In this document: positions 1,855-49,542 of the stretch, one piece after another
Position numbering within the stretch: position 1 is the first letter of the stretch
Layout: each line of letters begins with the position of its first letter
Assembly (NCBI GenBank): GCA_964594365.1
Contig: CAZQMB010000004.1
Span: 17,257 to 81,256, forward strand
DNA length: 64,000 nt
Reading direction: 5' to 3'
From: an uncultured Conexibacteraceae bacterium
GTDB lineage: Bacteria; Actinomycetota; Thermoleophilia; Solirubrobacterales; 70-9
The notes under the pieces: generated by a model
What the model saw: only the letters and a program-made list of their open reading frames with translations
What the model was told of the DNA's origin: nothing
Database searches by the model: none
Made by a program: the position numbers and the translations under genes

Positions 1855-3351
1855 ATGAATCCGCCACGCCCCCTGACCATCGTCTCGAACCGGGGTCCCG
1901 CCGAATTCGACCGTGACGAGCAGACCGGCGAGCGCATCGTGCGGAAGGGCGGTGGCGGACTGGTCACAGCCCTCAGCGGCTTGGTCTCGCACCGAAAGGC
2001 GCTCTGGGTCGCATCTGCGATGACCGCGGAGGATGTCCAGGTGGCCAGAGAGTCGGGTGGACCAACCGAGATCGAACTCGAGGGGATCGATTACGAGGTC
2101 CTGATGGTCGAGAGTGATCCCGCGGCCTACGAAGGCTTCTACAACATCATCGCCAACCCGATCCTGTGGTTCGTCCAGCACTACCTGTGGGACCTCTCGA
2201 ACGTGCCGGACATTCGCCGCAGTGAGCAGGTGGCATGGCGCGACGGATACCTGGCCGTGAACGCGGACATCGCTCAAGCGGTGATAGAGGCAATCACCGG
2301 CCAGGAGGAACCGTTGGTGATGTTCCACGACTACCACCTCTACACCTGCCCGGGTCTGGTCAAGGCAGCCCGACCGGATGCTGTCTGTCAGCACTTCGTC
2401 CACATCCCCTGGTCGCAGCCCGACTCATGGCGGATCTTGCCCGGCACCTGGAGGGAACGGATCTTCGAAGGGCTGCTGGCCAACGACATAATCGGCTTCC
2501 ACACACTCGCCTACTGCCGGAACTTCCTCCACTGTTGCGATGACCTGATGGGGCTGGAGGTCGACTACGAGCGCAACGCCGTGATCCACGGAGGCAGAGA
2601 AACCTGGGTGCGGGAGTACCCGCTCTCGATCGACGTGGAGCGGATGCACAGGGCAGCGGCCTCTCCCGAGGTGGAGCGGTACGAGAAGGAGCTGACCCGG
2701 CGCCGAAGGGACAATCTGATCATCCGGGTCGATCGGGCGGACCTCTCGAAGAACATCCTCCGCGGTTTCACCGCGTTCGACGTCTTCCTCGAGCAGCACC
2801 CGGAGTTCCGCGAGAAGGTGACATTCATCGCCCATCTCCAACCTTCCCGAGAGGATGTGCCCGAATACGCTGAATACCTGGAGAAGATCGAGGCGCTCGT
2901 CGCCGTGGTCAACCATCGCCACGGCACCACCGACTGGATGCCCATCGACCTGCGGATCTACGAGAACTTCCCCGAAGCGGTCGCGCGCTTCAAGCAGTTC
3001 GACCTGCTGATCGTGAATTCCCTGTTCGACGGGATGAACCTCGTCGCGAAGGAGGCGCCTGCGGTGAACGAGCGTGACGGCGTACTGATGCTCTCCGAGA
3101 ACACCGGTGCGCACGAGGAGCTCGGATCCTGCGCTCTCTCCGTCAACCCGTTCGATATCCAGGAGCAGGCGGACACCATCTTCCGGGCCCTGACCATGGA
3201 TCCAGAGGAGCGAGCTGATCGGGCGGCAAGATTGAAGGCGATCGTGGCCGCACGAAATCCAGGGGAATGGGTGGACGAGCAACTGGCAGACATCTCAGCC
3301 AAGCTGGCCGCCGACGCAGCACCCCCGGATCAACGCTCGAACCCGAACTGA
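1855..3351 (+). CDS. otsA: Alpha,alpha-trehalose-phosphate synthase OtsA (GT20)
   Basis: 498-aa ORF with N-terminal IVSNRGP, FHDYHLY, and length and layout typical of GT20 trehalose-6-P synthases. Confidence 0.9.
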   Translation: MNPPRPLTIVSNRGPAEFDRDEQTGERIVRKGGGGLVTALSGLVSHRKALWVASAMTAEDVQVARESGGPTEIELEGIDYEVLMVESDPAAYEGFYNIIANPILWFVQHYLWDLSNVPDIRRSEQVAWRDGYLAVNADIAQAVIEAITGQEEPLVMFHDYHLYTCPGLVKAARPDAVCQHFVHIPWSQPDSWRILPGTWRERIFEGLLANDIIGFHTLAYCRNFLHCCDDLMGLEVDYERNAVIHGGRETWVREYPLSIDVERMHRAAASPEVERYEKELTRRRRDNLIIRVDRADLSKNILRGFTAFDVFLEQHPEFREKVTFIAHLQPSREDVPEYAEYLEKIEALVAVVNHRHGTTDWMPIDLRIYENFPEAVARFKQFDLLIVNSLFDGMNLVAKEAPAVNERDGVLMLSENTGAHEELGSCALSVNPFDIQEQADTIFRALTMDPEERADRAARLKAIVAARNPGEWVDEQLADISAKLAADAAPPDQRSNPN

Positions 3352-3743
3352 CCCGGCGGATCGGGCCTTGACGGCCGCGGTGCGCTCGTCGCAGGTGACC
3401 AGTAGCTCGGGACCGGAGTGGGTTCATCGGGGGAAGCGGGCGGCCTGCGGGGAGTCTGGTGCCGACGCGCAGGTTTCGGCCTTTTCGGACGGGATCGCCG
3501 CCTCGAACCTGGGCGATCGGTGAGGTCGGAGGAACCCGGTTCCACGAGATCTTCCTCCGGCAGCCGAGGTGCTTCGTTCTCCAACCCGACCAGCCCGACC
3601 CGCTCGGGCAGGGGCGCAGGTTCCGCAGGAGCGAGCAGCCGGGAGACGAGTACGACGAGTGCTACGGAGGCAACGACCAGGCCCATGGCCCTGAGGGCAC
3701 GGCGATGATTCACCCTGAGTCCACGCAGGCGCGGAATCGACAT
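3330..3743 (-). CDS. Hypothetical membrane-anchored Pro/Arg-rich protein
   Basis: The internal ATG at 3743 gives MSIPRLRG..., followed by one hydrophobic segment (AMGLVVASVALVVLVSRLL) and a P/R-rich tail. Third-position GC looks coding-like by eye. No recognisable family. The 3' end overlaps the otsA stop by 22 nt. Confidence 0.3.
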   Translation of the reverse strand: MSIPRLRGLRVNHRRALRAMGLVVASVALVVLVSRLLAPAEPAPLPERVGLVGLENEAPRLPEEDLVEPGSSDLTDRPGSRRRSRPKRPKPARRHQTPRRPPASPDEPTPVPSYWSPATSAPRPSRPDPPGQFGFER

Positions 3744-3821
3744 GGCTATCCCGAAACCTGGCCGTATCGGCTCATGCGATCGATGAGCTTCGTGCGGCTC
3801 CCCTTCTCCCCCGCTATAGTC

Positions 3822-3855
3822 GGCCGCCGCGTCCGGATCAACCGCCGATGCGGCC
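3822..3855 (+). promoter_or_regulatory. GC-rich stem-loop in the rpsF 5' leader, with a TATAGT -10-like hexamer just upstream at 3815-3820
   Basis: GGCCGC (3822-3827) pairs perfectly with GCGGCC (3850-3855) around a 22-nt loop. The structure ends 9 nt before the rpsF ATG. Confidence 0.3.
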
Positions 3856-3864
3856 AAAGACGAA

Positions 3865-4260
3865 ATGACACGAAACTACGAACTCGTACTGATGCTCGAT
3901 GCCGAGGCCACGGATGAGGCCCGCGAAGCCATCGTGGGAGATGTCAAGACCCGGATCGAAGGCGGCGGTGACCTGGACCTCGCCGACAATTGGGGCATCC
4001 GCAAGATGGCCTACGAGATCGATCAGCGAAATGAAGCCGACTACAGGTACTTCCGGTTCAAGGGGGAAAATCCCCTCCTCGAGGACCTCAACCACAACCT
4101 GAAGATCTCCGAAGGCGTTCTCCGCCACCGGATCTTCAAGGTCGACCCCGAGTCGCCCACCACCGCTCCGCCCACATCCGATCGGCCCCACTCAGTCGGC
4201 TCGGAGCGATCGGACGATGGCGAAGGACGCGGTTCCGCGCGGTCCGGCCGCGACGACTGA
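3865..4260 (+). CDS. rpsF: 30S ribosomal protein S6
   Basis: MTRNYELVLMLD..., WGIRKMAYEI, HRIFKV. Canonical position ahead of ssb-rpsR-rplI. Confidence 0.95.
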   Translation: MTRNYELVLMLDAEATDEAREAIVGDVKTRIEGGGDLDLADNWGIRKMAYEIDQRNEADYRYFRFKGENPLLEDLNHNLKISEGVLRHRIFKVDPESPTTAPPTSDRPHSVGSERSDDGEGRGSARSGRDD

Positions 4261-4408
4261 GGACACTCTCCCTCCGCCAATCGGCTTCCGGGTGATTCTC
4301 GTCTCCGGACTTTGCGGGATTGGTTGCCATCGAAGCGCATTCAGTCGCCGCCTTGCGGCCTAAGATTCTGCGCAAGTAAATACCTAACGCAACAGAGGAG
4401 CTGATCGC

Positions 4409-4864
4409 GTGGCTGCAAGCAACATCAACATAGTCGCAATAACAGGCAACCTGACCAAGGATCCCGAACTTCGATCGACAGGCAGTGGGATGTCGGTCTG
4501 CCAGCTCAGGGTCGCCGTCAACAGTCGCCGGAAGGACCAGAACGGCGAGTGGGTCGACAAGCCGAACTACTTCGACGTAACGGTCTTCGGTGCGCAGGGT
4601 GAGAACTGTGCCAACTACCTCGCCAAGGGGCGACCCGTCGCAGTAGAGGGAAGGCTCGACTTCAGCGAATGGGAGGCGAAAGACGGTTCGGGCAAGCGGA
4701 ACAAGGTCGAGATCATCGCCAACTCCGTCCAGTTCCTCGGGTCCCGGTCCGACGGAGCGGGCGGCAACGGAAACGGGTTCGAGGCGACCTCGGACGTACC
4801 GGCGGACACCTCCGATTTCGTCCAGGCGGGGGCCGCTGCAAGCGACGAAGACATCCCCTTCTGA
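4409..4864 (+). CDS. ssb: Single-stranded DNA-binding protein
   Basis: GTG start. OB-fold pattern NIVAITGNLTKDPELR...YFDVTVFG...VAVEGRL, a Gly-rich linker and an acidic C-terminal tip DEDIPF. Confidence 0.95.
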   Translation: MAASNINIVAITGNLTKDPELRSTGSGMSVCQLRVAVNSRRKDQNGEWVDKPNYFDVTVFGAQGENCANYLAKGRPVAVEGRLDFSEWEAKDGSGKRNKVEIIANSVQFLGSRSDGAGGNGNGFEATSDVPADTSDFVQAGAAASDEDIPF

Positions 4865-4889
4865 GGACGCGAGTCCATTCGAATCTCCG

Positions 4890-4914
4890 AACGGCCCGCC
4901 CACGGCGGGCCGTT
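4890..4914 (+). terminator. Hairpin downstream of ssb (possible intrinsic terminator or attenuator)
   Basis: AACGGCCCGCC-CAC-GGCGGGCCGTT forms an 11-bp perfect stem 26 nt after the ssb stop. It is followed by TGCATT, so the U-tract is weak. Confidence 0.4.
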
Positions 4915-4998
4915 TGCATTCCCGGCACCCTGAGAGGAAAGTGAGCCCCTCTGCGTGTACCATCTGCGGCCGCGGCTGAGTTGCCGCTTCCCACACAG

Positions 4999-5728: not shown

Positions 5729-7168
5729 GTGCCCTCCGACGTGACTCCCGAACCTCCCCGCAGTGTCGAGGCGGTGGATGCCCTCCCTCGTGATCGACTC
5801 CCCGAAAGGACGCGCCTGCGCCTGGAAGGAGGGAAGCGGATACGCGATGGAGTTCCTCGTTCCTCTCAGGGTATCTGGGAGGCACCGGACGACCGCCCAG
5901 ATCCGGTTTCGATCCTCGAGAAGCAGGCAAAGACACGGGTACCTGAACTCGTGCCGATCAGATACGGCCGGATGCTGGAGAGCGCGTTCGCCTTCTTCCG
6001 TGGCGGAGCCGCCATCATGGCTTGGGACCTCTCGAGAACGCCGACGAGCGAACTCCGGGTCCAAGCCTGCGGAGATGCGCACCTCGAGAACTTCGGAGCG
6101 TTCGCCGCTCCGGATCGCACGATGGTCTTCGACCTGAACGACTTCGACGAGACCCTCCCCGCTCCCTTCGAGTGGGACCTGAAACGTCTCGCCGCGAGCA
6201 TCGCGATCGCTGCGAGAGACATGGGCTTCAGCCGGGAGGACTCCCGAATGGCGACCCGTGCAGCGGGAACCTACTACCGGGACCTGATCGGGGAGTTCGC
6301 CGGCATGCGGTTCATCGAACTCTGGTACTCGCGAATACCGATGAAGAAGATCCTCGAATCCGTCGCCGCTACCGGAGACGAGCGGGCGATCAAGCAGGCC
6401 AAGAAGCAGGTCAAGAAGGCCAAGCATCGAACTGCGCTCGGGGCGCTCGCGAAGTTCGCCGTAAAGGACGGCGACGAGTGGAAGATCAAGCCCGAGCCGC
6501 CTCTGATCGAGACGGTCCCGATCGAGGCGCTCCCGGGTGGGCCGGACATGTTCAAGCAGGGTCTCCAGGACTACACAGACACGCTGTCGCCTGAGCGGCA
6601 ACTCGTGATGGAGCGGTATCGATTCGCCGATGTCGCGCGGAAGGTCGTCGGAGTCGGCTCGGTGGGAATGGTCTCGATGATGATCCTGATGGTCGGCGAC
6701 CGTGATGACGACCCACTGTTCCTCCAGCTTAAGCAGGCGACCGAGTCGGTTCTGGCGCAGTACGCCGGAGCCAGCGTGTATTCGCATCCCGGCGAGCGGG
6801 TGGTGCAGGGCCAGCGGATCATGCAGGCTGCAAGCGATTCATTCCTCGGCTGGGTCACCGGCGCGATGGGTCTGGGGCTCGACTACTACGTGCGGCAGCT
6901 TCGCGACATGAAGGGTTCGGTGGATCTGACCAAGATGGATCCGCAGGGACTCATCAACTACGCAGGGCTGTGCGGTAGTTGCCTCGCCCACGCTCATGCG
7001 AGATCCGGAGACGCTGCGGCCATGACCGGCTACATCGGTACGTGTGACGAAATGGTCGATGCGCTGAGTGACTTCGCCGAGGCGTACGCCGATCAGAACG
7101 AGAGGGATTTCGAGGCGCTCGTTGCCGCCGAGAAAGACGGGCGCATCGAAGCCGAGTTCGGCCTCTGA
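5729..7168 (+). CDS. DUF2252-family protein (function unknown)
   Basis: 479-aa ORF with a GTG start. Characteristic DUF2252 stretch: VPIRYGRMLESAFAFFRGGAAIMAWDL...CGDAHLENFGAF..VFDLNDFDET..PFEWDLKRLAAS. Confidence 0.85.
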   Translation: MPSDVTPEPPRSVEAVDALPRDRLPERTRLRLEGGKRIRDGVPRSSQGIWEAPDDRPDPVSILEKQAKTRVPELVPIRYGRMLESAFAFFRGGAAIMAWDLSRTPTSELRVQACGDAHLENFGAFAAPDRTMVFDLNDFDETLPAPFEWDLKRLAASIAIAARDMGFSREDSRMATRAAGTYYRDLIGEFAGMRFIELWYSRIPMKKILESVAATGDERAIKQAKKQVKKAKHRTALGALAKFAVKDGDEWKIKPEPPLIETVPIEALPGGPDMFKQGLQDYTDTLSPERQLVMERYRFADVARKVVGVGSVGMVSMMILMVGDRDDDPLFLQLKQATESVLAQYAGASVYSHPGERVVQGQRIMQAASDSFLGWVTGAMGLGLDYYVRQLRDMKGSVDLTKMDPQGLINYAGLCGSCLAHAHARSGDAAAMTGYIGTCDEMVDALSDFAEAYADQNERDFEALVAAEKDGRIEAEFGL

Positions 7169-7422: not shown

Positions 7423-8844
7423 TTGGCTGGAGACCAGACAGTAGTTCCGCCGCAGAATCTCGAGGCCGAGGAATCGGTGCTCGGAGCGATGATGGTCTCT
7501 GAGGCCGCTGTGGAGCCCGTGCTGCTGGAGGTCCGGCTGGCTCCCGAGGACTTCTACCGAGATCGACACAGGGTGATCTACCAGGCGATCCTCTCCCTCA
7601 ACGAGGAGAACGCCGCAATCGATGCCCTCACCGTCGCCGAGAGGCTCACACAGCAGGGGACCCTCGAGCAGGCCGGCGGGCGGGATGTGATCGCAGGCCT
7701 CGCGGCGACCGTCCCTGCAGCCGGAAACGCTGCGCACTACGCCAGGATCGTGAAGGAGAACTCCGTGCTTCGGAGACTCGACCGCGCGGCGAAGGAAATC
7801 CAGCAGTCGGTAGTCGATAGGGGCGACACCACCGGGGAGCTGGTCGAACGCGCAGAACGGCTCCTCTTCCAGGTGGCGCACACCGAACAGGCCTCGGACT
7901 TCAAGTCGGTGGAGGATGTCCTCCACGACGAGTGGGACAGACTCCAGCACCTGCACGAGAACAGCAACGAGCTGATCGGCACACCGTCCGGCTTTCGTGA
8001 CCTCGACAGCAAGACCGGTGGATTCCAGGCTGGGAACCTGATCGTGATCGCCGCCCGACCTTCGATGGGCAAGAGCACCTTCGTCTGCAATATCGCCGAG
8101 AACGTCGCGCTGAAAGCGAATCTCCCGGTGGCGCTCTTCTCGCTCGAGATGTCGGAGACGGAGCTCGCACAGAGGTTCCTCGCCTCTCAGGCCCGGATCA
8201 GCTCTGACAAGCTCAGGAGGGGGGCCGTTTCGGAATCCGATTGGCCGAAGGTGATGAGCGCAAACAACAGCCTCGCCAACGCCCCGTTGTGGATCGACGA
8301 CTCCGCCGACCTCAGCCTGCTCGAACTGCGGGCCAAGGCCCGCCGGCTCCATGCGGAGATGAAGCGCCAGAACGGTGAGAGGGGGCTCGGTTTGATCATC
8401 GTCGACTACATCCAGCTGCTCAGAGCCGATGACACTCACGCAAACCGGGTCGAACAGGTGGCTCAGTTCAGCCGTGGACTGAAGCTCCTCTCCCGCGAAC
8501 TCGAAGTGCCGGTGATCGCGGTCTCGCAGCTGTCGAGGGCACCCGAGCAGCGGCCCGACAAGCGGCCCATCCTGTCCGATCTGCGCGAATCAGGATCGAT
8601 CGAGCAGGACGCCGACATAGTCGGATTCCTCTATCGCGACGAGTACTACACGAAGGAGAACTCCGAGGAGCCAGGGATCGGCGATCTGATCCTCGCCAAG
8701 CACAGGAACGGTCCGGTCGGAGTAGTGAAGCTGGCCTTCATCTCCAGATACCCCAAGTTCGCCGATCGGGCGATCAGGGATGTACCGGTGGAACAAACCG
8801 CTACCGACGACCCGCCTGTGACCGACCTTGCAGAAGGTGGATGA
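7423..8844 (+). CDS. dnaB: Replicative DNA helicase DnaB
   Basis: TTG start. N-terminal PPQNLEAEESVLGAMM, Walker A ARPSMGKSTF, Walker B IIVDYIQLL, then VIAVSQLSR and SGSIEQDAD. No intein. Confidence 0.95.
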   Translation: MAGDQTVVPPQNLEAEESVLGAMMVSEAAVEPVLLEVRLAPEDFYRDRHRVIYQAILSLNEENAAIDALTVAERLTQQGTLEQAGGRDVIAGLAATVPAAGNAAHYARIVKENSVLRRLDRAAKEIQQSVVDRGDTTGELVERAERLLFQVAHTEQASDFKSVEDVLHDEWDRLQHLHENSNELIGTPSGFRDLDSKTGGFQAGNLIVIAARPSMGKSTFVCNIAENVALKANLPVALFSLEMSETELAQRFLASQARISSDKLRRGAVSESDWPKVMSANNSLANAPLWIDDSADLSLLELRAKARRLHAEMKRQNGERGLGLIIVDYIQLLRADDTHANRVEQVAQFSRGLKLLSRELEVPVIAVSQLSRAPEQRPDKRPILSDLRESGSIEQDADIVGFLYRDEYYTKENSEEPGIGDLILAKHRNGPVGVVKLAFISRYPKFADRAIRDVPVEQTATDDPPVTDLAEGG

Positions 8845-8845
8845 G

Positions 8846-9589
8846 GTGCGAGTGGCCGGCTCAGGGGCGCTCGCCGATGAACCCTCCATCTGCCCCAAGG
8901 GAACGTGTGACGGCTCCGGATGGATCCTGGGGCCGGAGGACATCGCTCGCCCGTGTGGCTGCCGGGAGCGCAAGATCGCCAAGGCGAAGTCTCACGGCGT
9001 CTCCTCTGTGATCCCGGCGAGATACCGGGGAGTCTCATTCGATCGACCGCCGGTGACACAGATCAACGACGCGGTGGTCAACCAGGTTCGCGAGTACTGC
9101 GATCGACTCGAAGAGAGCCTCGACTCCGGGCGGGGCCTCTGGTTCTTCGGCAACTCGGGCACCGGTAAGACGACCCTCGCGATGCTCGTCTCGAAACTCA
9201 CGCTCGAGGCTGGTCGAACCGCGGCGATCTACTCGATGCCGCAACTGCTCTCGAGGATCCGGCAGACCTTCGACTCGCTGCCGGGCGAGGAGTCATATCT
9301 GGACCTCTTCGGCCAACTCACCTCGGTCGACCTGCTGCACCTCGATGACCTCGGATCGGAGAATCGAACCGAGTGGGTTCTGGAACAGCTCTATGCGTTG
9401 ATCAACGAGCGGTACGAGGCAGAGAGGGCGCTGGTGGTCACGACCAACCTCACGGCCGAGCAGCTCGAGGAGCAGATCGGTGAACGGGTCGTGTCGCGTC
9501 TGGTCGAGATGTGCGGCGACCCGCTTCCTCTGTACGGCGACGACCGTCGTTTGAAGGTCGCTCCACCGCCGTCCGATTCCGCTTCATAA
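8846..9589 (+). CDS. DnaC/DnaI-type AAA+ ATPase (putative helicase loader) with N-terminal Cys4 motif
   Basis: Walker A GNSGTGKTT, Walker B LLHLDDLG, sensor-I VVTTN, C-terminal RVVSRL, and N-terminal CPKGTC...CGC. The start is ambiguous: TTG 8828, or GTG 8837, 8846 or 8852. GTG 8846 is preferred because AAGGTGG lies 5 nt upstream. The dnaB stop is at 8842-8844. Confidence 0.85.
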   Translation: MRVAGSGALADEPSICPKGTCDGSGWILGPEDIARPCGCRERKIAKAKSHGVSSVIPARYRGVSFDRPPVTQINDAVVNQVREYCDRLEESLDSGRGLWFFGNSGTGKTTLAMLVSKLTLEAGRTAAIYSMPQLLSRIRQTFDSLPGEESYLDLFGQLTSVDLLHLDDLGSENRTEWVLEQLYALINERYEAERALVVTTNLTAEQLEEQIGERVVSRLVEMCGDPLPLYGDDRRLKVAPPPSDSAS

Positions 9590-10942
<1,353 letters not shown>

Positions 10943-17197: not shown

Positions 17198-18004
17198 TCA
17201 GGGAGTGCCCAGCGGGGATCCGCCGAAGCCTCCACCACTGAGTGGATTCGAGCCACCGGCGCCAGCGCCGCCTGATTGAGCTTGAGCCTTCGACTCGGTG
17301 ACCACCTGCTTCTCGAATGCCTTCGCGGACTTCTCCACCTGATCGAACTGTTTGCTCAGTTCCTTCCGATCACCAGCGGGGGCCTTCGCGAGGGCTTGGG
17401 AAACGGTGCGCTGGGCTGCTGCGAAGTCACCGGCGTAGAACAGGTAGACAGCGAGGTTGTTCAGATTGCCGACGGTCGGGTTCTGGTCGACCGCGACTTC
17501 TTGAGCCTCCGCTGCGTTCTCCACATCGATCCTGGCGTCGGCTGCGCTCGAGGAAGACTGCGCCATCAAGAAGAAACTGTTGGCGAGCTGGAGCGCAAGG
17601 CCGGAGTCCGGCCTCTTGGGATTCCCTTTCAGGTAGAGGTCCCATTGGTCCGCAGCGAGGTTGTAGGAAGTGGATGCTTCGGGTGTTGCGGTGGACTGAC
17701 CGGTCTGAGGGTCGACCTCGAGTTGCTGGTTTCCACGCTGGATGTAGAGACTGACCAGATCGAGCCGGGCAGCCTCGTTGTCGGGGTTGGTCTTCAAGGC
17801 GGCCTGTGCCGTCTGGATCTCCTTGGCATAGATCTCGCTGCTGTCCTGCTCGCTGTCGCGCAGTCCCAGCGCATCCAACAGACCGCCAGTGGCGTCCGAG
17901 CCGATTCCGAAGAAGAGCAAGCCGCCGCCGAGCAAAATGGCGAGAGTCGAGTAGATGACCTTGATCGCGGCACGTCTGCCTGGACTCTGTAGATCGAAGA
18001 GCAT
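17198..18004 (-). CDS. Membrane-anchored TPR-like repeat protein
   Basis: N-terminal TM segment (VIYSTLAILLGGGLLFFGI), helical repeat region and a Gly-rich C-terminus. Family assignment is weak. Confidence 0.5.
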   Translation of the reverse strand: MLFDLQSPGRRAAIKVIYSTLAILLGGGLLFFGIGSDATGGLLDALGLRDSEQDSSEIYAKEIQTAQAALKTNPDNEAARLDLVSLYIQRGNQQLEVDPQTGQSTATPEASTSYNLAADQWDLYLKGNPKRPDSGLALQLANSFFLMAQSSSSAADARIDVENAAEAQEVAVDQNPTVGNLNNLAVYLFYAGDFAAAQRTVSQALAKAPAGDRKELSKQFDQVEKSAKAFEKQVVTESKAQAQSGGAGAGGSNPLSGGGFGGSPLGTP

Positions 18005-38411: not shown

Positions 38412-39167
38412 TCACCGGTTCCGACTCTTCTTCTTCGGTGGGGGAGGTGGCGGCTTCGCGGCGCGGATCTCCTCGGGCGTGGGTTGTGGGGGCGGAGGGA
38501 AGAAGACCTTGACCACTGCCTGCTGGCCCATGGTCCAGAAGTTGGTCGCGATCCAGTAGACGAGGACACCGGCAGGGAAGCCGATCACGAAGGGGATGAA
38601 CAACAGCGGCAAGCCCAACGTGATGAACCTCTGTTGTTTGCTCGCGGTGGTGCCGGTCATGATCAGGCCTGCGATTACGGACGTACCTGCGTAGAGAACG
38701 AGCAGGATGACCAGATCGATCCCCACGGCCTTCTCCGTCAGATCCGGGATGAACAGGAAGCCCGGGTTGCCGGTGGCGTAGATCTCCTCCTGGAAGGTGT
38801 CGCTGCGCAGCAGGTAGAAGAGCGAGAGGAACACGGGGATCTGGAGCAGCAACGGCAGGCATGACGCGAAGGGATTTACGTTGTTCTCCTGGTAGATCCG
38901 CATCATCTCGCGCTGCTGACGCTCGCGGTCGTCCTTGTACTTCTCCTGGATCTCCTTGATCTGGGGCTGGAGTGCCGCCAGCGCCCGCATCGAGCGGATC
39001 TGCTTCACCGACAGCGGGAGTATCAGCGCACGGGTGAGGAAGGTCAGGCCGATGATCGAGAGGCCCCACGAGAGACCGACCGTGTCGTGGAAGAAGAGCA
39101 GGACCGCATTCGCCACCTCGATGAGGGGTGAGAGGATGTCCGCGATGATGTCCGCGACGGGAATCAT
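38412..39167 (-). CDS. yidC: Membrane protein insertase YidC
   Basis: PLSVKQIRSMRALAALQP, NPFASCLPLLLQIPVF, and a basic Pro/Lys-rich C-terminal tail. Confidence 0.93.
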   Translation of the reverse strand: MIPVADIIADILSPLIEVANAVLLFFHDTVGLSWGLSIIGLTFLTRALILPLSVKQIRSMRALAALQPQIKEIQEKYKDDRERQQREMMRIYQENNVNPFASCLPLLLQIPVFLSLFYLLRSDTFQEEIYATGNPGFLFIPDLTEKAVGIDLVILLVLYAGTSVIAGLIMTGTTASKQQRFITLGLPLLFIPFVIGFPAGVLVYWIATNFWTMGQQAVVKVFFPPPPQPTPEEIRAAKPPPPPPKKKSRNR

Positions 39168-39445
39168 CTGACCGGCGCTCCTGACGGGTCATGACCGCAC
39201 GAGTTGCGGGGTCGATCAGCCCGGAAGAGGGTGCGGTCGGCAACGTCATCGATACCTCCGTTGCTGAGCGGATTGCATCGAAGGAGGCGCCAGGAAGCGA
39301 GAATCGACCCCTTCAACGGCCCGAGCTCACTCACAGCCTCGACTGCGTAGCGAGAGCAGGTCGGCTCGTACTTGCAGCGGCGTGGAAAGGCGGGGGAGAT
39401 CCAGCGTTGATAGACGCCGAGCAATAGGAGAAGCGCGCGTTTCAC
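39164..39445 (-). CDS. yidD: Membrane protein insertion efficiency factor YidD
   Basis: The GTG at 39445 lies directly after the rnpA stop. YQRWISP...CKYEPTCSRYA...RLLRCNP. Confidence 0.9.
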   Translation of the reverse strand: MKRALLLLLGVYQRWISPAFPRRCKYEPTCSRYAVEAVSELGPLKGSILASWRLLRCNPLSNGGIDDVADRTLFRADRPRNSCGHDPSGAPVR

Positions 39446-39446
39446 G

Positions 39447-39830
39447 CTAAACGGTTCCTTCCTGACTGGTGGACGACGGGAGGAGTTCTTCGATCTGGGC
39501 ACGCACAGCCTGCGAGCCCTCGGAATCAAGCAGGTTACCCAGATCGGGCCTCGCGACGACCACATAGTCCGAGGTGTCCGAAACCCGCTCCTCGAGCGCC
39601 CAGAATTCCTCGCGGATCACACGCTTGACGCGGTTGCGACGCACTGCGTTACCCACCTTCTTGCCGACGGATATGCCCAGCCTGGGCGGACCCTCCGCAT
39701 CCGGACTGCGGGGGAACACGTGCAACACGAGAAAGCGGTTCCCCTTCGACTCGCCGGAGCGATAGACCCGATCGAAGTCCGCGCTGCGAGAAAGTCGACC
39801 ACGGCGAGACTGATTCCTGCCTGCAGCCAA
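39447..39830 (-). CDS. rnpA: Ribonuclease P protein component
   Basis: The TTG at 39830 follows the rpmH stop. RLSRSADFDRVY, GISVGKKVGNAVRRNRVKR. The longer track ORF runs through rpmH in another frame and is rejected. Confidence 0.88.
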   Translation of the reverse strand: MAAGRNQSRRGRLSRSADFDRVYRSGESKGNRFLVLHVFPRSPDAEGPPRLGISVGKKVGNAVRRNRVKRVIREEFWALEERVSDTSDYVVVARPDLGNLLDSEGSQAVRAQIEELLPSSTSQEGTV

Positions 39831-39832
39831 GG

Positions 39833-39967
39833 TCAGGCGGAGAGCCGGCGGCGACCCTTCTTGCGTCGCCGCTTGAGTATCGCCCTTCCTCCACGGGAAG
39901 AACTCCGCACGCGAAAGCCGTGTGTCTTGGAGCGCTTGCGTTTCTTGGGTTGGTAGGTCCGCTTCAT
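39833..39967 (-). CDS. rpmH: 50S ribosomal protein L34
   Basis: Translated by hand (below the ORF-track length cutoff): [44 protein letters not shown]. Confidence 0.95.
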
Positions 39968-40072
39968 TGAGTTTGGTCACCGCCACTCGATACTGATCTA
40001 CAGATCGAATTCGACCCGCTCGGGCGAATGCGGAGTATAGGCGCGTAATAGTCAACGGCGGCGGGAGGGCAG

Positions 40073-40081
40073 TCATCCACA
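40073..40081 (+). promoter_or_regulatory. Single DnaA-box-like 9-mer in the rpmH-dnaA spacer
   Basis: TCATCCACA matches TTATCCACA at 8 of 9 positions. Confidence 0.35.
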
Positions 40082-40254
40082 TCGCTCCGGGAAGGTTTTT
40101 CCCGCTCGGTGCGGGGCAGGAGGAATTCCGAGCCCGGACAGAGCCCCGGTCGTGAATATGATTCCGCGCCCGCGGAGGTCGTGGGAGTGTCCGAAAGCGT
40201 CGAGTGAAACCGAAGGGGTCAGAGATTCGAGATTCATCCCAGACGGGACCAGAG

Positions 40255-41598
40255 ATGGAGGAGAGACTCGCTCCCCTCGAGCCTCAGGAGGCATGGTCGA
40301 TCCTGAAGGCGGATCTGCGGACCATGGCCGGTCGCTCGACTTTCGACCTCTGGTTCTCGCAGCTGGAACCACTCCGGATGAGCAACGACGTCCTCTACCT
40401 CACTGGTCCGAATCACGTGATCGCTTGGGTGGACCGCCGTTACGAGGATCTGCTCGCCAGGTCGCTCCGCCAACTCGGGGGCCGGGTGAGCGAGATACGG
40501 CTGGTCCAGAGAGAGGGCCAGGTCCCTTCGGCGCCGCAGGGAGCGGGGTTCGCCGACTCGTCCATTCCTCGACAGCGAGATCGACAGACCTTCGACAGGT
40601 TCGTGATCGGCCCTGGAAACAGGATCGCGCACGGTGCTGCACTGGCCGTAGCCGAGGCGCCCGGGGAGGCCTACAACCCACTCTTCCTGCATGGGAACCC
40701 GGGTCTCGGGAAGAGCCATCTTCTCGGCGCGATTGCCGACTACATCGACCGCAACAACCCCGAGCTCAAGATCCATTCCACCACGGCCGAGAGTTTCACC
40801 GCCGAGTTCATCCAGGCGGTTCAGACCCGCGGAATCGAGGAGTTCAAGAACCGCTACCGGAGAGTGGACGTCCTCTTGATCGACGATGTCCAATTCCTCG
40901 AAGGAAAGGCACGAACCGCTGACGAGTTCTTCCACACCTTCAACGCCCTCCACCTCGTCGGGTCACAGATAGTCCTCTCGGCAGACCGGATGCCGAGTGA
41001 GTTGTCCACACTTGCCGACCGCTTACGGGAGAGATTCGAATGGGGTCTGGTGGTGGACATAGACCAGCCGGACCTCGCCACCAGAAGAGCGTTCCTCGAG
41101 ACCTTCGCTGCCGCCGAGGAGATCGAACTCCCTCCAGAGACGACCGAGGTCCTCGCCGACTACTCCCTTGCGAGTATCCGGGCAGTCGAGGGTGCCTTGA
41201 CACGCGTTATGGCCAGAGCGTCGCTGGGAGGCGGGGACCTGACACCGGAGCTGGTGGAGGCTGTCCTCGGAACAGCCGAACTCGAGCGGGAATTCGAAGA
41301 GAGGTCGGTCGTCACGGTCGACCAAATCAAATCGCTCGTGTCCGAACGATTCTCGGTGTCTCTCGAGGACCTCGATTCCTCCAAGCGATCGGAAAGGGTA
41401 TCTAGCGCCCGACAAGTGGCGATGACGCTAACCCGTGAGTTCACCGCCATGTCATTGCCCGCTATCGCCTCAGCCTTCTGCCGGAAGGATCACTCCACCG
41501 TCATCCACGGAATAAATCGAATCGATTCCAGGGTCCAGACGGACCGCGAGTTCGCAGACCTCGTGGAAAGATGCCGATCCGAGCTTCGAGCCGGATAG
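40255..41598 (+). CDS. dnaA: Chromosomal replication initiator DnaA
   Basis: The ATG at 40255 is preferred (MEERLAPLE...). TFDRFVIGPGN, Walker A GNPGLGKSHLL, LLIDDVQFL, and the DNA-binding signature KDHSTVIHG. Confidence 0.95.
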   Translation: MEERLAPLEPQEAWSILKADLRTMAGRSTFDLWFSQLEPLRMSNDVLYLTGPNHVIAWVDRRYEDLLARSLRQLGGRVSEIRLVQREGQVPSAPQGAGFADSSIPRQRDRQTFDRFVIGPGNRIAHGAALAVAEAPGEAYNPLFLHGNPGLGKSHLLGAIADYIDRNNPELKIHSTTAESFTAEFIQAVQTRGIEEFKNRYRRVDVLLIDDVQFLEGKARTADEFFHTFNALHLVGSQIVLSADRMPSELSTLADRLRERFEWGLVVDIDQPDLATRRAFLETFAAAEEIELPPETTEVLADYSLASIRAVEGALTRVMARASLGGGDLTPELVEAVLGTAELEREFEERSVVTVDQIKSLVSERFSVSLEDLDSSKRSERVSSARQVAMTLTREFTAMSLPAIASAFCRKDHSTVIHGINRIDSRVQTDREFADLVERCRSELRAG

Positions 41599-41620
41599 AC
41601 CGTGACCGAACAGAGTGAAA

Positions 41621-41694
41621 CAATCCACCTTCTCCACAATTCCGCACGCTATCCACATCCCTATTACAACTGAACAGGGAAACTTGAATAGGGA
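41621..41694 (+). promoter_or_regulatory. Candidate oriC core: DnaA-box-like 9-mers plus an 8-bp inverted repeat in the dnaA-dnaN spacer
   Basis: Same-orientation boxes: CAATCCACC (41621-41629, weak), TTCTCCACA (41630-41638, 8/9 to TTGTCCACA) and CTATCCACA (41649-41657, 8/9 to TTATCCACA). The inverted repeat is TCCCTATT (41658-41665) / AATAGGGA (41687-41694). Locally AT-richer than the surroundings. Confidence 0.5.
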
Positions 41695-41700
41695 CCAGAA

Positions 41701-42810
41701 ATGAAACTCAAGACCACCAAACGCGAACTAGTCGATGCCCTCTCCGTTACCGCGAGGGCGACCTCGACTCGTAGTGCACTCCAGGCACTCTCTGGCGTCT
41801 TGCTGGACGCGAGTTCTGACGGGACCGTGGTGAGGGCAACTGACGCGGAGATCTCTCTCGAACTCTCTCTCGCCGCAGAAGTCGAGCTGCCCGGATCGAT
41901 TCTGGTCCCGGGACGGCTGTTAGCCGACGTTTCCAAGACCCTCCCTGATGGAGATGTGACCCTCGCGACCAGGGAGCCGGAAGGAGACCTCGAGATCAAG
42001 GCGGGGTCGTCGAGCTTTCACCTGCGTCTCTTGCAGGCCGAAGATTTCCCCAAGTTCCCGGATTCATCTGGAGACCCTGTATCGCTGGATGCGCAGGCTG
42101 TCTCCGAGACCATCGGAAGGGTTGCCGGCGCAGCGTCCACCGATGAGGGTAGGCCTGTTCTCACTGGTGTCTTCATGACCGCTGAAGCCGATTCACTCAC
42201 AATGGTCGCGACGGATTCCTATCGGCTCGCCGTCAAGACCACGAAGCTCTCGACCGCAGTCTCTTCTCAAATCGAAGCCAACGTACCCGCTCGCGCCTTG
42301 CGCGAGCTCTCACGTCTGATCGAAGCCGCTGGCGAAGACGCCGAGCTCCAACTCTGGTTGGGAGAGAATCAAGCGGTATTCGGTTGCGGTGGTACTCGCC
42401 TCGCATCTCGGCTGATCGATGGCCAGTTCCCGAACTACAAGCAACTGATACCCGACAAATTCGACCACGAGGTGAACCTGGACCGCGAGGAATTGCTCGA
42501 TGTGGTGAGGCGGGTATCGCAACTCGCACAGAGAAACGCCGCACTCAAACTCTCCTTCTCCGAGGGCGAGTTGACGATCTCGGCAGAGACGCAGGACCTC
42601 GGTGACGCCAAGGAGTCCATGCCAGTGTCATTCCAGGGTGAAGCTCTCGAGGTTGGTTTCAACCCTGATTTCGTGCGTGCAGGGCTCGAGAGCATCCAGG
42701 AGGACGAGATCGTCTTCAAGTTGATCTCACCATTGAGGCCGGGCTTGCTCGAACCTTCGGCTGGGGACGACTTCAGCTATCTGGTCATGCCGATCCGACT
42801 CAACGACTGA
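41701..42810 (+). CDS. dnaN: DNA polymerase III beta sliding clamp
   Basis: 369 aa with three-domain clamp layout; LIDGQFPNYKQLIP motif. Confidence 0.95.
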   Translation: MKLKTTKRELVDALSVTARATSTRSALQALSGVLLDASSDGTVVRATDAEISLELSLAAEVELPGSILVPGRLLADVSKTLPDGDVTLATREPEGDLEIKAGSSSFHLRLLQAEDFPKFPDSSGDPVSLDAQAVSETIGRVAGAASTDEGRPVLTGVFMTAEADSLTMVATDSYRLAVKTTKLSTAVSSQIEANVPARALRELSRLIEAAGEDAELQLWLGENQAVFGCGGTRLASRLIDGQFPNYKQLIPDKFDHEVNLDREELLDVVRRVSQLAQRNAALKLSFSEGELTISAETQDLGDAKESMPVSFQGEALEVGFNPDFVRAGLESIQEDEIVFKLISPLRPGLLEPSAGDDFSYLVMPIRLND

Positions 42811-42818
42811 GGCCTTCG

Positions 42819-43931
42819 GTGATTGCCTCGTTGGAGGCCAGGGGTTACCGCAACCTGGTCGGGGAGTTGTCGCTCCCCATAGATCCCAACTTGACCGTGT
42901 TCCATGGGCCGAATGGCGCGGGTAAGACCAATCTGCTGGATGCGCTCCATTTCGGACTCACAGGAGCCTCGATGCGTTCCGGCACGATCAAGAATTCGAT
43001 CGGCTTCGACGCGGAGAGCGCGCGGGTAGAGGTCGAGTTCTCGGATCGGACCGGCACGATGCACAAGACACTCGCCTCTCTGGATCGCTCAGGTCAGCGG
43101 CGGAACCTCTTGGACGGGGCAGCTCCGACCGCATCTGTACCTCTGCCGAGGGTCGCCCTCTTCCATCCGGATCATCTCCAGACCATCAAGGGCCCTCCAG
43201 CTCACCGACGGGCATTGGCAGATCAGGTGGCCGGGTCCCTGTCCCCCTCGCAGGCAGATCTCCGGGCACGGTATGGAAGGACCCTTGCTCAACGCAACGC
43301 GCAGCTGAGAAGGGTGAGGGCAGGAGAGATCGCGGTTGCCGAACTCGAAGTGTGGGACAGCCGTCTGGCCGCAGATGCGCAGCCTCTGGTCGCTTCACGT
43401 CGAGCAGCGATCGATAGCCTTGCTCCGCATTTCCGCGAGGCCGCTACCACTCTCGGACTGATCGAGCCAGACCTTTCCTACAAGACCCGGGCTGGAGGGG
43501 ATGAAGAGTCGATCCGCTTGCGTCTGGCCGAACTGCGCGCCGAGGACCCAGGACGTGCTTATGTCATGTATGGCCCCCATCTCGATGATCTGCATGTAGA
43601 GGCGGAGGGAAGGGCCCTCAAGCAATTCGGGTCTCAGGGTCAGCAACGCGCTGCGGTCCTCGCGTTACTGCTCGGTGAGCGCGCAGCGTTGGCCGGAGCC
43701 GGCAGGGAGGCTCCGCTCCTGCTGTTGGATGACGTGATGAGCGAGCTGGATCCCCGTCGCCGCGAGTTGCTGATCGGGGCCGCTGTGTCCGGCGGCCAGG
43801 TCGTGGTGACCGCCACAGATCTTTCTCAGGTTCCCTCGGAAGGGCTGGCGCCGAGCAGTACCTCGTATCGGGTCGAGGCTGGCCGCGTGGACAGCGGGTC
43901 CGATTCCCCCTCGGTGGCGGAGGCCGCCTGA
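42819..43931 (+). CDS. recF: DNA replication and repair protein RecF
   Basis: GTG start. Walker A GPNGAGKTNLLDA, signature GSQGQQR, Walker B LLLLDDVMSELD. Confidence 0.94.
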   Translation: MIASLEARGYRNLVGELSLPIDPNLTVFHGPNGAGKTNLLDALHFGLTGASMRSGTIKNSIGFDAESARVEVEFSDRTGTMHKTLASLDRSGQRRNLLDGAAPTASVPLPRVALFHPDHLQTIKGPPAHRRALADQVAGSLSPSQADLRARYGRTLAQRNAQLRRVRAGEIAVAELEVWDSRLAADAQPLVASRRAAIDSLAPHFREAATTLGLIEPDLSYKTRAGGDEESIRLRLAELRAEDPGRAYVMYGPHLDDLHVEAEGRALKQFGSQGQQRAAVLALLLGERAALAGAGREAPLLLLDDVMSELDPRRRELLIGAAVSGGQVVVTATDLSQVPSEGLAPSSTSYRVEAGRVDSGSDSPSVAEAA

Positions 43932-43934
43932 ATC

Positions 43935-44246
43935 GTGGCCCCGCGCAAGCAGCCGGAGAGAATAGGTGTGCCCCTCGACCGCCTTACCGCCTCCCTCGCT
44001 CCCTCCACCCCTCTCGGGTCCGTTCAAACTGTCTGGCGCAACGCGGTGGGTGACCGGATCGCTGACCGTTGTAATCCCGTGAAAGCTCAGGAGGGCGTCC
44101 TCACCGTGGTTTGTGAGAGCTCGGCCTGGTCCCAGCAACTCACGATGATGCAGGTCGACCTGTTGGAAAGGCTGAGAGCGGAGATCGGTGATCCCGCCCA
44201 TGCACCAACCGAACTTCGATTCGTCGTGACGGACGATCAGGCGTGA
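43935..44246 (+). CDS. dciA: DUF721 domain protein (DciA-type, canonical recF-gyrB slot)
   Basis: VWRNAVGDRIADRCNPVKAQEGVLTVVCESSAWSQQLTMMQVDLLERL aligns by eye to the DUF721 core of the mycobacterial recF-gyrB intergenic gene. GTG start 4 nt after the recF stop. Confidence 0.82.
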   Translation: MAPRKQPERIGVPLDRLTASLAPSTPLGSVQTVWRNAVGDRIADRCNPVKAQEGVLTVVCESSAWSQQLTMMQVDLLERLRAEIGDPAHAPTELRFVVTDDQA

Positions 44247-44433
44247 CGCGTCCACGTAGCGGTATACGTTTCATTCGTAATTTGCAGGGAATTCGACTCT
44301 ATATGGCGAGGTTCCACCAGATGCGACTGGTAGAGTCGTCCTCAAGTTGATCGGTCGCTACCCGTGTATGCCCGTGCTCATGGCGCCGGGCGCCCAGGCC
44401 GCGGCCTCCCACCATCCGATCGAGAGGGGCTGA

Positions 44434-46884
<2,451 letters not shown>

Positions 46885-46908
46885 ATCTCACGCCGGGGCA
46901 GGTAGCTG

Positions 46909-49542
46909 ATGGCCGACGAACCCAAGGACGTCAACTCCGAAGCGATCGTGGATCGCATCGAGGAGCGCGATCTCGATCAGGAGATGCGCTCTTCCTACCT
47001 CGATTACGCCATGAGCGTGATCGTCGGGCGCGCGCTTCCTGACGTAAAGGACGGCCTCAAACCGGTCCACCGCCGGGTGCTCTACGCCATGCACGATCTG
47101 GGCCTTCAGCCGAATCGCGCTTACCGCAAGTGTGCGTTCATCGTCGGAGAGGTCATGGGCAAGTACCACCCCCACGGCGACTCGGCCATCTACGAGACCT
47201 TGGTCCGGATGGCTCAGGACTTCTCGCTTCGTTATCCGTTGGTCGACGGTCAGGGCAACTTCGGCTCGATCGACGACGATCCGGCGGCTGCCATGCGTTA
47301 CACGGAGGCGCGTCTCGATTCCCTCGCCACCGAGATGCTTCGCGACATCGATGCCGACACGGTCGACTTCGGACCGAATTACGACGAGTCGACCCGCGAG
47401 CCGCTTCTGCTCCCCGCCCGTTTCCCGAATCTCCTGGTCAACGGCGCTGCGGGCATCGCGGTCGGGATGGCGACGAACATCCCGCCGCACAACCTCCGCG
47501 AGGTCGCGGCTGCGGTCGAGGCCTACATCGACGATCCTTCGATCGACCTCAAGGGTCTGATGAAGCACGTGAAAGGTCCGGACTTCCCGGGCGGCGGGAC
47601 GATCCTCGGTGTCGGCGGTGTTCGCGACGCCTATGCAAGCGGCAAGGGGAGCCTCAAGTTGAGGGCGACCGCTCACATCGAGGAGATGAAGAAGGGTCGC
47701 GAGGCGATCGTGGTCACCGAGCTGCCGTTCCAGGTCAAGAAGGGTGGCGACGGCGGTTTGATCACGAAGATCGCCGATCTGGTCAGGGAGAAGAAACTGA
47801 CGGGAATCGCCGACCTGCGTGACGAGTCGGATCGCAACGGGATGCGACTCGTGATCGAACTCAAGAAGGGCAGCGGACCGTCGACGGTGGTCTTGAACCA
47901 GCTCTACAAGCGGACCTCGATGCAGATCTCCTTCGGCATCAACATGGTCGCTCTGGTGGATGGAGTCCCCAAGACCCTGGGTCTGAGGGAACTGATCGAG
48001 CACTACGTGGGCCATCAGAAGGAAGTCATCACCCGCCGCAGTCAGTTCGAGCTCGCACGCGCCGAAGCTCGCGCGCACATCCTCGACGGGCTGCTGATCG
48101 CTCTCTCGAAGCTGGATCAGGTGATCAAGCTGATCCGCGCGTCGAAGGACCCAGAGACCGCCCGCGAGGGATTGATGTCCAAGTTCGGTCTCAGTCAACC
48201 GCAGGCACAGGCGATCCTCGACATGCGATTGCAGCGCTTGACCGCTCTGGAGTCCGACAAGATCAAGGAGGAGCACGACGAGCTGACCAAGCGGATCAAG
48301 GAGCTTCGTACGCTTCTCGCCGACGAGAAGAAGGTTCTCGCTCTGGTCAAGTCGGAGCTCGCCGAAGTCGTCGAGCGGTTCGGAGACGATCGTCGCACCA
48401 AGATCGGCAAGGCCGAGGGCGACATGGAGATCGAGGATCTGATCGCGGATGAGCAGATGGTCGTCTCCCTCACCTCATCCGGTTACATCAAGCGGATCCC
48501 GCTCGCGAGCTACCGCAAGCAGCACAGAGGCGGCCGAGGTGTGCGCGGGATGGATACAAAGGAGGGTGACTACATCGAGCACCTCCGCATCTGTTCCACC
48601 CACGACTACCTCCTCTTCTTCACCAACCGGGGCAAGGTCTATCGCCTCCGTGCCCACGAACTTCCCGAGGGCTCCCGCCAGGCAAAGGGCCGTGCGCTGG
48701 TCAACCTCATCCCGCTCCGGGACAAGGAGAAGGTGATGGCGATGATCCCGACTCGGGATTTCTCGGAAGGCAAGTTCCTGGTCTTCGCGACGGCCGACGG
48801 CATGATCAAGAAGACGGAGTTCATCGACTACAACACCCCGATCCGGGCCGATGGGATCATCGCGATAAAGATCAAGAAGAACGATGCCTTGGTCGATGTC
48901 CGGTTGACCAACGGCACCGACGACATCATGTTGATCTCCAAGTCAGGTCACGCCGTCAGGTTCAAGGAGAAACTGGTCAGGGGAATGAGTCGCGACACCT
49001 CGGGTGTCAAGGGAATGAACGTCAGCGAGAAGACCAACGCCGTCATCGCGATGGAGGTCGTCCAGCCGAAGTCGCAACTCTTGGTGGTGACCGAGAACGG
49101 CTACGGCAAGAGGACCCCGATCGAGGATTACCCGATCAAGGGACGAGGTACCAAGGGCGTCTTGACTGCGAAGTTGACCGCGAAGAAGGGTGGCCTCGCG
49201 GGCGCTCTGGTGGTCGACGAGAACCAGGAACTCCTTTTCATCTCGCAGAAGGGGATGGTGCAGCGCACCTCGGCAGGGGAGATCTCCCAGACGGGACGCG
49301 CGACCCAAGGTGTCAAGGTGATGAATCTCAAGTCCGGCGACAAGGTCAGCGCAACCGCACTCGTAGCCGAGCCAGACGAGCAAGAGCTCGAGAGGGCTGC
49401 GGCGAGTGCCGACCCTCCCACCAAGGGTGGCGCTGCTCAGAAGGCCCCCACGAAGAAACCTGCCGCGAAGAAGACGACCGCCAAGAAATCCTCGGCGGCG
49501 AAACCACGGACCAAGAAGCCTCCCGCGAAGAAGAAGAAGTAG
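46909..49542 (+). CDS. gyrA: DNA gyrase subunit A (with Lys-rich C-terminal tail)
   Basis: [14 protein letters not shown], active-site region [10 protein letters not shown], GyrA-box-like QRRGGRG-type [11 protein letters not shown], and C-terminal beta-pinwheel repeats. Confidence 0.96.

Follow-up and report, generated by a model that had tools for sequence, protein, structure and literature searches.

How the replicative helicase is loaded in the order Solirubrobacterales, and whether one DnaB can be served by two unrelated loaders, are questions raised by a gene lying directly behind dnaB in the genome of an uncultured Conexibacteraceae bacterium, a soil actinobacterium (GenBank assembly GCA_964594365.1, contig CAZQMB010000004.1). 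The stretch analyzed here, which we call the window, is 64,000 nucleotides (nt) long and spans positions 17,257 to 81,256 of that contig on the forward strand. The helicase operator DciA is ancestral, and phage-derived ATPases of the DnaC/DnaI type have replaced it at least seven times (PMC5109545; PMC9912922). Brezellec et al. placed these seven domestications of dna[CI] genes in the Enterobacteriales, Aeromonadales, Alteromonadales, Clostridia, Bacilli, Aquificae and Chloroflexi, with none in the Actinobacteria (PMC5109545), and the literature describes the two loader types, DciA and DnaC/I, as excluding each other from genomes (PMC5109545; PMC9912922). A first-pass annotation of the window, made from the letters alone, had described a DnaC/DnaI-type gene coupled to dnaB, proposed that it might be an independent domestication and set it against the idea that such loaders replace DciA. 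We find that this gene is resident, conserved and translationally coupled to dnaB across an order, and that it coexists with dciA. Our results suggest that it is probably a phage-derived loader of the DnaC/DnaI class, acquired between dnaB and purA by an ancestor of the order and passed on vertically ever since.

A resident gene behind dnaB

The loader-like gene is an open reading frame (ORF) on the plus strand at 8846..9589, encoding a protein of 247 amino acids (aa). It is separated by 1 nt from the stop codon of dnaB (7423..8844, +) and by 9 nt from purA (9599..10942, +), the adenylosuccinate synthase gene, which is its conserved downstream neighbor (relatives have a PF00709 call at the corresponding place). 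A scan of one-per-species GTDB genomes with alignment A3 found at least 497 related loci, and 84 loci were compared, comprising the best 80 of the at least 497 and 4 others. The survey of relatives for a dnaB-loader pair that the first-pass annotation had proposed gave a clear answer, with DnaB encoded immediately 5' of the gene in all 84 loci. The start codon lies between -4 and +1 nt from the dnaB stop in 68 of the 84 (41 of these being 1-nt overlaps) and between -20 and +30 nt in 75. PurA was detected by tblastn in 82 of the 84 loci, 66 of which pass a filter of plus strand and a start no more than 400 nt past the end of the loader match. The dnaB-X-purA order, X being the loader-like gene, is kept down to 51% identity (P0271) and is present in an uncultured Conexibacteraceae genome (L074).

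Homologues of the protein extend down to an expect value (E) of 1e-162, and the closest are from Solirubrobacterales metagenome-assembled genomes (MAGs), many of which carry the Joint Genome Institute (JGI) label "DNA replication protein DnaC." The best 80 of the at least 497 loci are all from Solirubrobacterales, Thermoleophilia or Actinomycetota MAGs, except one titled simply "bacterium" (L005). The host had been described as actinobacterium-like, which is correct but too loose, the closest relatives being MAGs of the Solirubrobacterales (class Thermoleophilia).

On average, the loader is 65% identical to its counterpart in the window, DnaB 63%, PurA 73% and RplI 68%; the first two values indicate that the loader gene is constrained as strongly as the helicase gene. 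Against the 97%-identical locus L005, synonymous and nonsynonymous codon differences number 25 and 8 in the loader gene, 38 and 11 in dnaB, and 97 and 18 in purA. Pairwise distances for the loader and PurA are correlated (r = 0.79, a value reached in 0 of 999 Mantel permutations), which argues for vertical inheritance. The earlier idea of a domestication is thereby strengthened, the gene being resident and vertically inherited in a phylum to which none of the seven published events belongs.

These data bear directly on the possibility that the gene is carried as a passenger by a prophage or another mobile element and stands beside dnaB by chance in one genome. The best profile and structural matches of the protein are indeed phage DnaC-like loaders. 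However, no phage genes flank it, its base composition is uniform with that of its flanks (G+C of the window is ~63% throughout), the dnaB-loader-purA arrangement was followed through the 84 loci and down to 51% identity, and the loader has codiverged with PurA. Close viral or plasmid relatives were also missing: the orthologue-alignment scan placed no relatives on viral contigs (52 pattern matches), plasmids gave no close relatives and only 8 weak matches at 29 to 39% identity, and the 489 phage records with a match were all below 60% identity, the best at ~31 to 34%. A prophage passenger is ruled out by synteny and codivergence, and the wider idea of a chance passenger, hardly credible, is refuted.

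The family comprises 148 clusters at 50% identity (E values of 1e-30 or lower), and its outlying members have other settings. Those at 38 to 47% identity (L085, L089, L090 and L091) are solo chromosomal genes in unrelated contexts, one of them (L090) placed after secDF-recJ-relA, and no dnaB, istA or phage genes were seen beside these four. A resident loader may thus have become established in further lineages.

Start site and coding potential

The dnaB stop codon (TGA, 8842-8844) and the four possible starts of the loader-like gene (TTG 8828, GTG 8837, GTG 8846 and GTG 8852, all in frame) are as the first reading of the sequence had given them. A putative Shine-Dalgarno-like element, GAAGGTGGA (8833..8841, +), lies within the 3' end of dnaB, 4 nt before GTG 8846. 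We regard GTG 8846 as the likeliest start and number residues from it; TTG 8828, GTG 8837 and GTG 8852 are the alternatives. Gene callers chose the equivalent of 8837 in one relative (P0001; 250 aa, 99% identical) and that of 8846 in four others (P0002 to P0005; 247 aa). The ORF looks coding from its composition, with a G+C of 0.80 at third codon positions versus 0.46 at second positions, as in the neighboring genes.

A predicted AAA+ protein of the DnaC/DnaI class

Profile matches and residue alignments identify the product as a DnaC/DnaI/IstB-class AAA+ protein with a predicted full set of catalytic and single-stranded DNA (ssDNA)-sensing residues. The complete DnaC/IstB-class module that had been claimed for it is borne out: the motifs listed earlier (GNSGTGKTT, LLHLDDLG, VVTTN, RVVSRL and CPKGTC...CGC) are every one present in the translation, Pfam IstB_IS21 (PF01695, the "AAA^CI" domain of Brezellec et al.) matches at 35.9 bits versus a gathering score of 24.1, and the catalytic residues align with those of Escherichia coli DnaC. 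Residue roles were taken from Puri et al. (PMC8213410) and positions from a HMMER alignment to E. coli DnaC (chain 6QEL_G), so that the following assignments are by alignment. The AAA+ module would span residues ~95 to 230 (9128..9535, +). Its Walker A motif GNSGTGKTT (G102-T109; 9149-9172, +) has K108 aligned with DnaC K112, and the Walker B motif LLHLDDLG has D167-D168 (9344-9349, +) aligned with D169-E170. Sensor I (VVTTN) contributes N201 (9446-9448, +), opposite DnaC N203, and the predicted Arg finger of RVVSRL is R218 (9497-9499, +), opposite R220. The coupling Arg R214 corresponds to R216, and R139, F142, T175 and W177, also encoded on the plus strand, correspond to the ssDNA-binding tetrad K143, F146, S177 and Y179. 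R234/R235 are a candidate sensor II from position only. Among 39 family representatives reaching down to 32% identity (alignment A2), K108, D168 and R218 do not vary, and conservation of W177 is 90% or more.

Of all profiles, phrog_50 of the PHROG collection ("DnaC-like helicase loader") matches best, with 190.9 bits (E = 1e-55) over residues 13 to 240; the collection carries no curated cutoffs, and the loader-like gene itself is chromosomal and not viral. The nearest named models are PRK08116 (NF005992; 142.5 bits versus a cutoff of 189) and PRK06835 (98 bits versus 215), DnaC-like "ATP-binding/hypothetical protein" subfamilies without an experimentally defined function; the PRK08116 match begins at residue 41 and leaves the N-terminal cysteine motif outside. 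These two are the best NCBIfam matches for all 39 representatives (best E = 5e-49), with an unchanged ranking. The DnaC equivalog NF005931 scores 61.9 bits versus a cutoff of 357, and the DnaI equivalog NF006505 scores 51.4 bits versus 228. Placement with respect to DnaC, DnaI and IstB is by profile score in place of a tree, identity being ~20% over 170 residues.

A sequence search of the Protein Data Bank (PDB) returned helicase loaders alone, bar a weak RecA match (3CMU, E = 3.5e-4): Aquifex DnaC (1.2e-11), E. coli DnaC (1.5e-11) and the DnaI entries 4M4W, 2W58, 2QGZ and 5HE8 (7.6e-8 to 1.9e-5). An AlphaFold2 model built from the 39-sequence alignment (predicted local distance difference test [pLDDT] score, 91.4; predicted template modeling [pTM] score, 0.83) was compared with the PDB by Foldseek; the DnaC chain of the E. 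coli DnaBC complex (6QEM_G, E = 6.7e-10) comes first, followed by Aquifex DnaC (3ECC) and 6QEL; Staphylococcus aureus DnaI, IstB and DnaA structures follow further down. Phage DnaC-like proteins in BFVD gave stronger structural matches than any in the PDB (E = 8e-15, with 225 to 263 aligned columns).

The name of the matching Pfam family, IstB_IS21, brings up the possibility that the protein is an IstB-type transposition helper left behind by, or domesticated out of, an IS21-family element. IstB does share PF01695 and the AAA+ clade with the window protein, the helper model NF038214 (IS21_help_AAA) scores 62 bits, the same as the DnaC model, and IstB structures are among the Foldseek matches (8Q3W, 3.3e-8; 5BQ5, 1.3e-7). 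However, 62 bits falls far below the helper cutoff of 200, the models PRK08181, PRK06526 and PRK09183 reach only 20 to 24 bits versus cutoffs of ~300, and the PDB sequence search at E values of up to 1e-3 recovered six loader sequences and no IstB. The profile searches called for earlier thus give PF01695 above threshold and no firm placement with IstB. The locus also has no istA-like ORF, nor space for one, as dnaB and purA abut the gene; no terminal inverted repeats flank it, the only repeats being short, imperfect ones inside the coding sequence; and in all 84 genomes it occurs as a single copy at the same site. Finally, the DnaC ssDNA-binding tetrad is conserved. An origin as an IstB helper, a scarcely plausible reading, is effectively refuted, and the statement of the first-pass annotation that the gene is not an IS21 remnant holds, a remnant being ruled out by the missing istA and inverted repeats, the subcutoff IstB scores and the fixed single-copy position.

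A DnaA-related, Hda-like regulator that acts on initiation and not on the helicase is a further alternative, and we consider it very improbable. Weak matches to Bac_DnaA (24 bits) and Hda (32 bits), together with the DnaA structures among the Foldseek matches, speak for it. However, both scores are far under those of the loader families, DnaA domain IV is absent, no clamp-binding motif was seen in the translation, and the coupling is to dnaB, not to dnaA or dnaN.

E. coli DnaC (6QEL/6QEM) is the best PDB structural match. It has the same initiator-clade AAA+ fold, a similar size (245 aa versus 247 aa), a short N-terminal domain before the AAA+ module, and a Walker A motif, sensor I, coupling Arg, Arg finger and ssDNA tetrad that all align with those of the window protein; both proteins are also thought to be phage derived (PMC5109545). 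Identity is nevertheless only ~22%, and the window protein differs in its Cys4 N terminus and in having DD rather than DE in Walker B. The E. coli dnaC gene stands apart from dnaB, whereas the window gene is coupled to it, and dciA, which was lost in the Enterobacteria with dnaC (PMC5109545), is kept in the window.

A putative N-terminal zinc ribbon, with a phage parallel

The N terminus carries a Cys4 motif, C16-x4-C21-DGSGW...C37-x-C39 (8891..8962, +), which is a putative zinc ribbon. All four cysteines are invariant among 20 orthologues; among the 39 cluster representatives, down to 32% identity, C16, C37 and C39 are invariant and C21 is at least 90% conserved. The AlphaFold2 model has a beta-hairpin at residues 26 to 36 followed by a helix at 40 to 49 (pLDDT, ~93), and the domain is predicted to bind zinc.

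The N-terminal domain of DnaI binds zinc and the helicase, and the Cys4 motif had been said to recall that domain. DnaI of Bacillus, Geobacillus and Staphylococcus (4M4W, 2W58 and 5HE8) likewise has a small N-terminal domain followed by an AAA+ module. The motif itself is real, but homology to the DnaI N-terminal domain is not supported: Pfam DnaI_N has no match in the protein at E values of up to 1, the DnaI equivalog score (51 versus 228) is low, and the same layout occurs in a phage loader. The likeness to DnaI is hence by analogy only. The window also differs from the DnaI system in that no DnaD-like or DnaB(Bsu)-like coloader genes were seen near the gene, whereas DciA is present.

The phage proteins of phrog_50 (e.g., those of gut phage MT835689, Bacillus phage Pookie gp40 and Pseudomonas phage phiPSA1 gp35) give the strongest profile and structural matches, at only ~30% identity. 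The loader of MT835689 has a zinc ribbon of the CxxC...CxC type (CPKCQDTG...CEC) directly before its AAA+ module, like the window protein, so the zinc-ribbon-plus-AAA+ layout exists among phage loaders; those of Pookie and phiPSA1 have degenerate versions that lack the full Cys4 set. The phage loader genes adjoin replication-initiator or DnaD-like genes, whereas the window gene follows the host dnaB. The locus thus defines a distinct zinc-ribbon-plus-AAA+ loader family, some members of which are solo chromosomal genes elsewhere.

At the opposite end of the protein, many orthologues (P0011, P0015, P0019, P0033, P0056, P0058, P0116, P0105 and P0053) share a C-terminal tail that closes with a conserved peptide, ...SLGEGGG..LGPLDH (alignment A1, columns 245 to 271), which may be a short docking motif. 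The window protein does not have this tail and ends in APPPSDSAS.

Coexistence with DciA

The framing of the gene in terms of DciA replacement needs correcting, as the same window contains an intact dciA (43935..44246, +) encoding an ancestral helicase operator of 103 aa (PF05258, 65.6 bits versus a cutoff of 24) in the canonical slot between recF and gyrB. The loader-like ATPase therefore coexists with DciA. Loss of dciA, which the literature correlates with dna[CI] genes but which does not define the family, was not found, dciA being present in the window and in one relative. In that relative, whose RecF is 52% identical, a 102-aa DciA occupies the same recF-gyrB slot and is 39% identical to the window DciA. 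A search for DciA homologues returned only 5 near-identical matches, DciA sequences changing too quickly for a word-indexed search to follow, and no contigs were common to the RecF homologue matches and the loader matches.

In Supplementary Data 1 of Brezellec et al. (2016), Conexibacter woesei, which has been cultured and belongs to the same order, is entered with a single PF01695 protein and a single DciA, as is Acidimicrobium ferrooxidans; for Rubrobacter xylanophilus, the table has a single PF01695 protein and no entry under DciA. Should the proteins of Rubrobacter and Acidimicrobium belong to the same family, other deep classes of the Actinobacteria would show coexistence or a replacement carried to completion. 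The nearest precedent is that of three Vibrionaceae genomes with dciA and an unrelated viral loader, vdhL2 (PMC11087808). Full-text literature searches found no paper on a resident DnaC-like loader coexisting with DciA or on a Solirubrobacter DnaC.

Whether the Solirubrobacterales stably run two unrelated loading systems on one DnaB, namely, DciA and a phage-derived zinc-ribbon DnaC-like ATPase, seems to us evenly balanced. If they do, a two-loader state spanning hundreds of species would contradict the published mutual exclusion of DciA and DnaC/I, and coexistence on this scale would point to a long-lived functional state, with a division of labor or cooperative loading, and not to a brief intermediate. 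As both loader types dock on the same DnaB module, their coexistence raises the questions of whether they compete, act in sequence or specialize (oriC versus restart), and of whether the loss of DciA is a necessary result of acquiring a dna[CI] gene. Such a lineage would also be a natural system for asking what each type of loader contributes.

Proposed role of the ATPase

A plausible course of events can be outlined for a loader encoded in this position. Translational coupling would yield the ATPase in a fixed ratio with DnaB, and the Cys4 zinc ribbon and the helix that follows it may bind the C-terminal tier of DnaB. With ATP, the AAA+ modules would oligomerize on the back of the helicase ring, where the patch formed by R139, F142, T175 and W177 could grip ssDNA while the loader helps to thread DNA into the ring. 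Hydrolysis of ATP by way of the R218 Arg finger, gated by R214, would then release the loader. DciA and the ATPase may divide the work, e.g., into oriC loading and fork restart, or may act in sequence.

Several observations weigh against a loader of this kind. Every named NCBIfam model scores the protein under its curated cutoff, and Foldseek gives no clean separation of DnaC, IstB and DnaA (6.7e-10 versus 3.3e-8 versus 6.9e-8). Walker B is DD and not DE, a feature found likewise in Aquifex DnaC. The case for binding of DnaB and zinc and for loading activity is drawn from homology and from the structure of the operon. Finally, the intact DciA, a sufficient loader in other bacteria, leaves room for a role of the ATPase other than in primary loading.

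Such a role is the substance of the remaining alternative, in which DciA loads the helicase at oriC and the ATPase is a DnaB-associated AAA+ accessory factor, with duties in PriA-dependent restart, in helicase parking or regulation, or in protection against phage takeover of DnaB. The canonical position of an intact dciA in the window and in the relative is in keeping with this, as is the essentiality and sufficiency of DciA alone for loading in other Actinobacteria and Proteobacteria (PMC5109545; PMC5720831). DciA and DnaC, moreover, share the linker helix-docking helix (LH-DH) module of DnaB as a binding site (PMC9912922), which makes the simultaneous use of DciA and the ATPase at one step awkward. 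However, the ATPase retains everything that DnaC uses for loading, down to the ssDNA tetrad and the coupling arginine, and the loader is more conserved than DciA at comparable divergence (~65% identity across the order versus the 39% of DciA in the relative with 52% RecF identity). The coupling to dnaB also suggests a one-to-one complex with every new DnaB molecule. Hence, we consider an accessory role unlikely and favor a resident loader. The locus would then add an actinobacterial case to the known domestications of phage DnaC-like loaders, one that is unusual in its dnaB operon fusion, its zinc ribbon and its retained DciA, and the first to be noted in the Actinomycetota, with the ATPase fixed in the dnaB operon across a whole order.

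The helicase gene and its surroundings

The gene upstream of the loader-like gene encodes 473 aa when counted from TTG 7423, its first in-frame start codon, and its profile matches mark it as the chromosomal replicative helicase gene dnaB (TIGR00665, 520 bits versus a cutoff of 385; PRK05748, 529 versus 525). Pfam DnaB and DnaB_C both match the product, and the phage_DnaB model is under its own cutoff. The context of the gene is canonical (rpsF-ssb-rpsR-rplI-dnaB), within the wider order treT-otsA-rpsF-ssb-rpsR-rplI-(DUF2252)-dnaB-X-purA.

The DUF2252 gene (5729-7168; 479 aa; PF10009, 444 bits) lies between rplI and dnaB in the window and in L005; in the remaining 83 loci dnaB follows rplI, and no DUF2252 gene was detected between them. 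In some Solirubrobacterales genomes (L040, at 2266-4974, and also L031, L066 and L081), dnaB encodes ~900 aa, with an intein near residue 397 that includes a homing endonuclease of the LAGLIDADG type (Pfam Intein_splicing, 98.9 bits; LAGLIDADG_3, 75 bits). The intein-bearing dnaB is still directly followed by the loader gene; the dnaB of the window has no intein.

The origin region

The chromosome origin lies ~31 kb from the dnaB-loader pair. Gene calls on the window give an origin-region operon, dnaA-dnaN-recF-dciA-gyrB-gyrA, at 40204..49542 on the plus strand, in which dnaA occupies 40204-41598, dnaN 41701-42810, recF 42819-43931, gyrB 44434-46884 and gyrA 46909-49542. With yidC, which is on the minus strand, the origin region covers 38412-49542, and the noncoding stretch of ~1 kb between the end of yidC (39167) and dnaA (40204) probably holds rpmH/rnpA and oriC. 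The gyrB ORF encodes 816 aa from its first start, and 830 aa in a relative (L092). It has ~190 residues between the Toprim and C-terminal domains, a stretch longer than in typical GyrB proteins, and the extra sequence may be a lineage-specific insertion.

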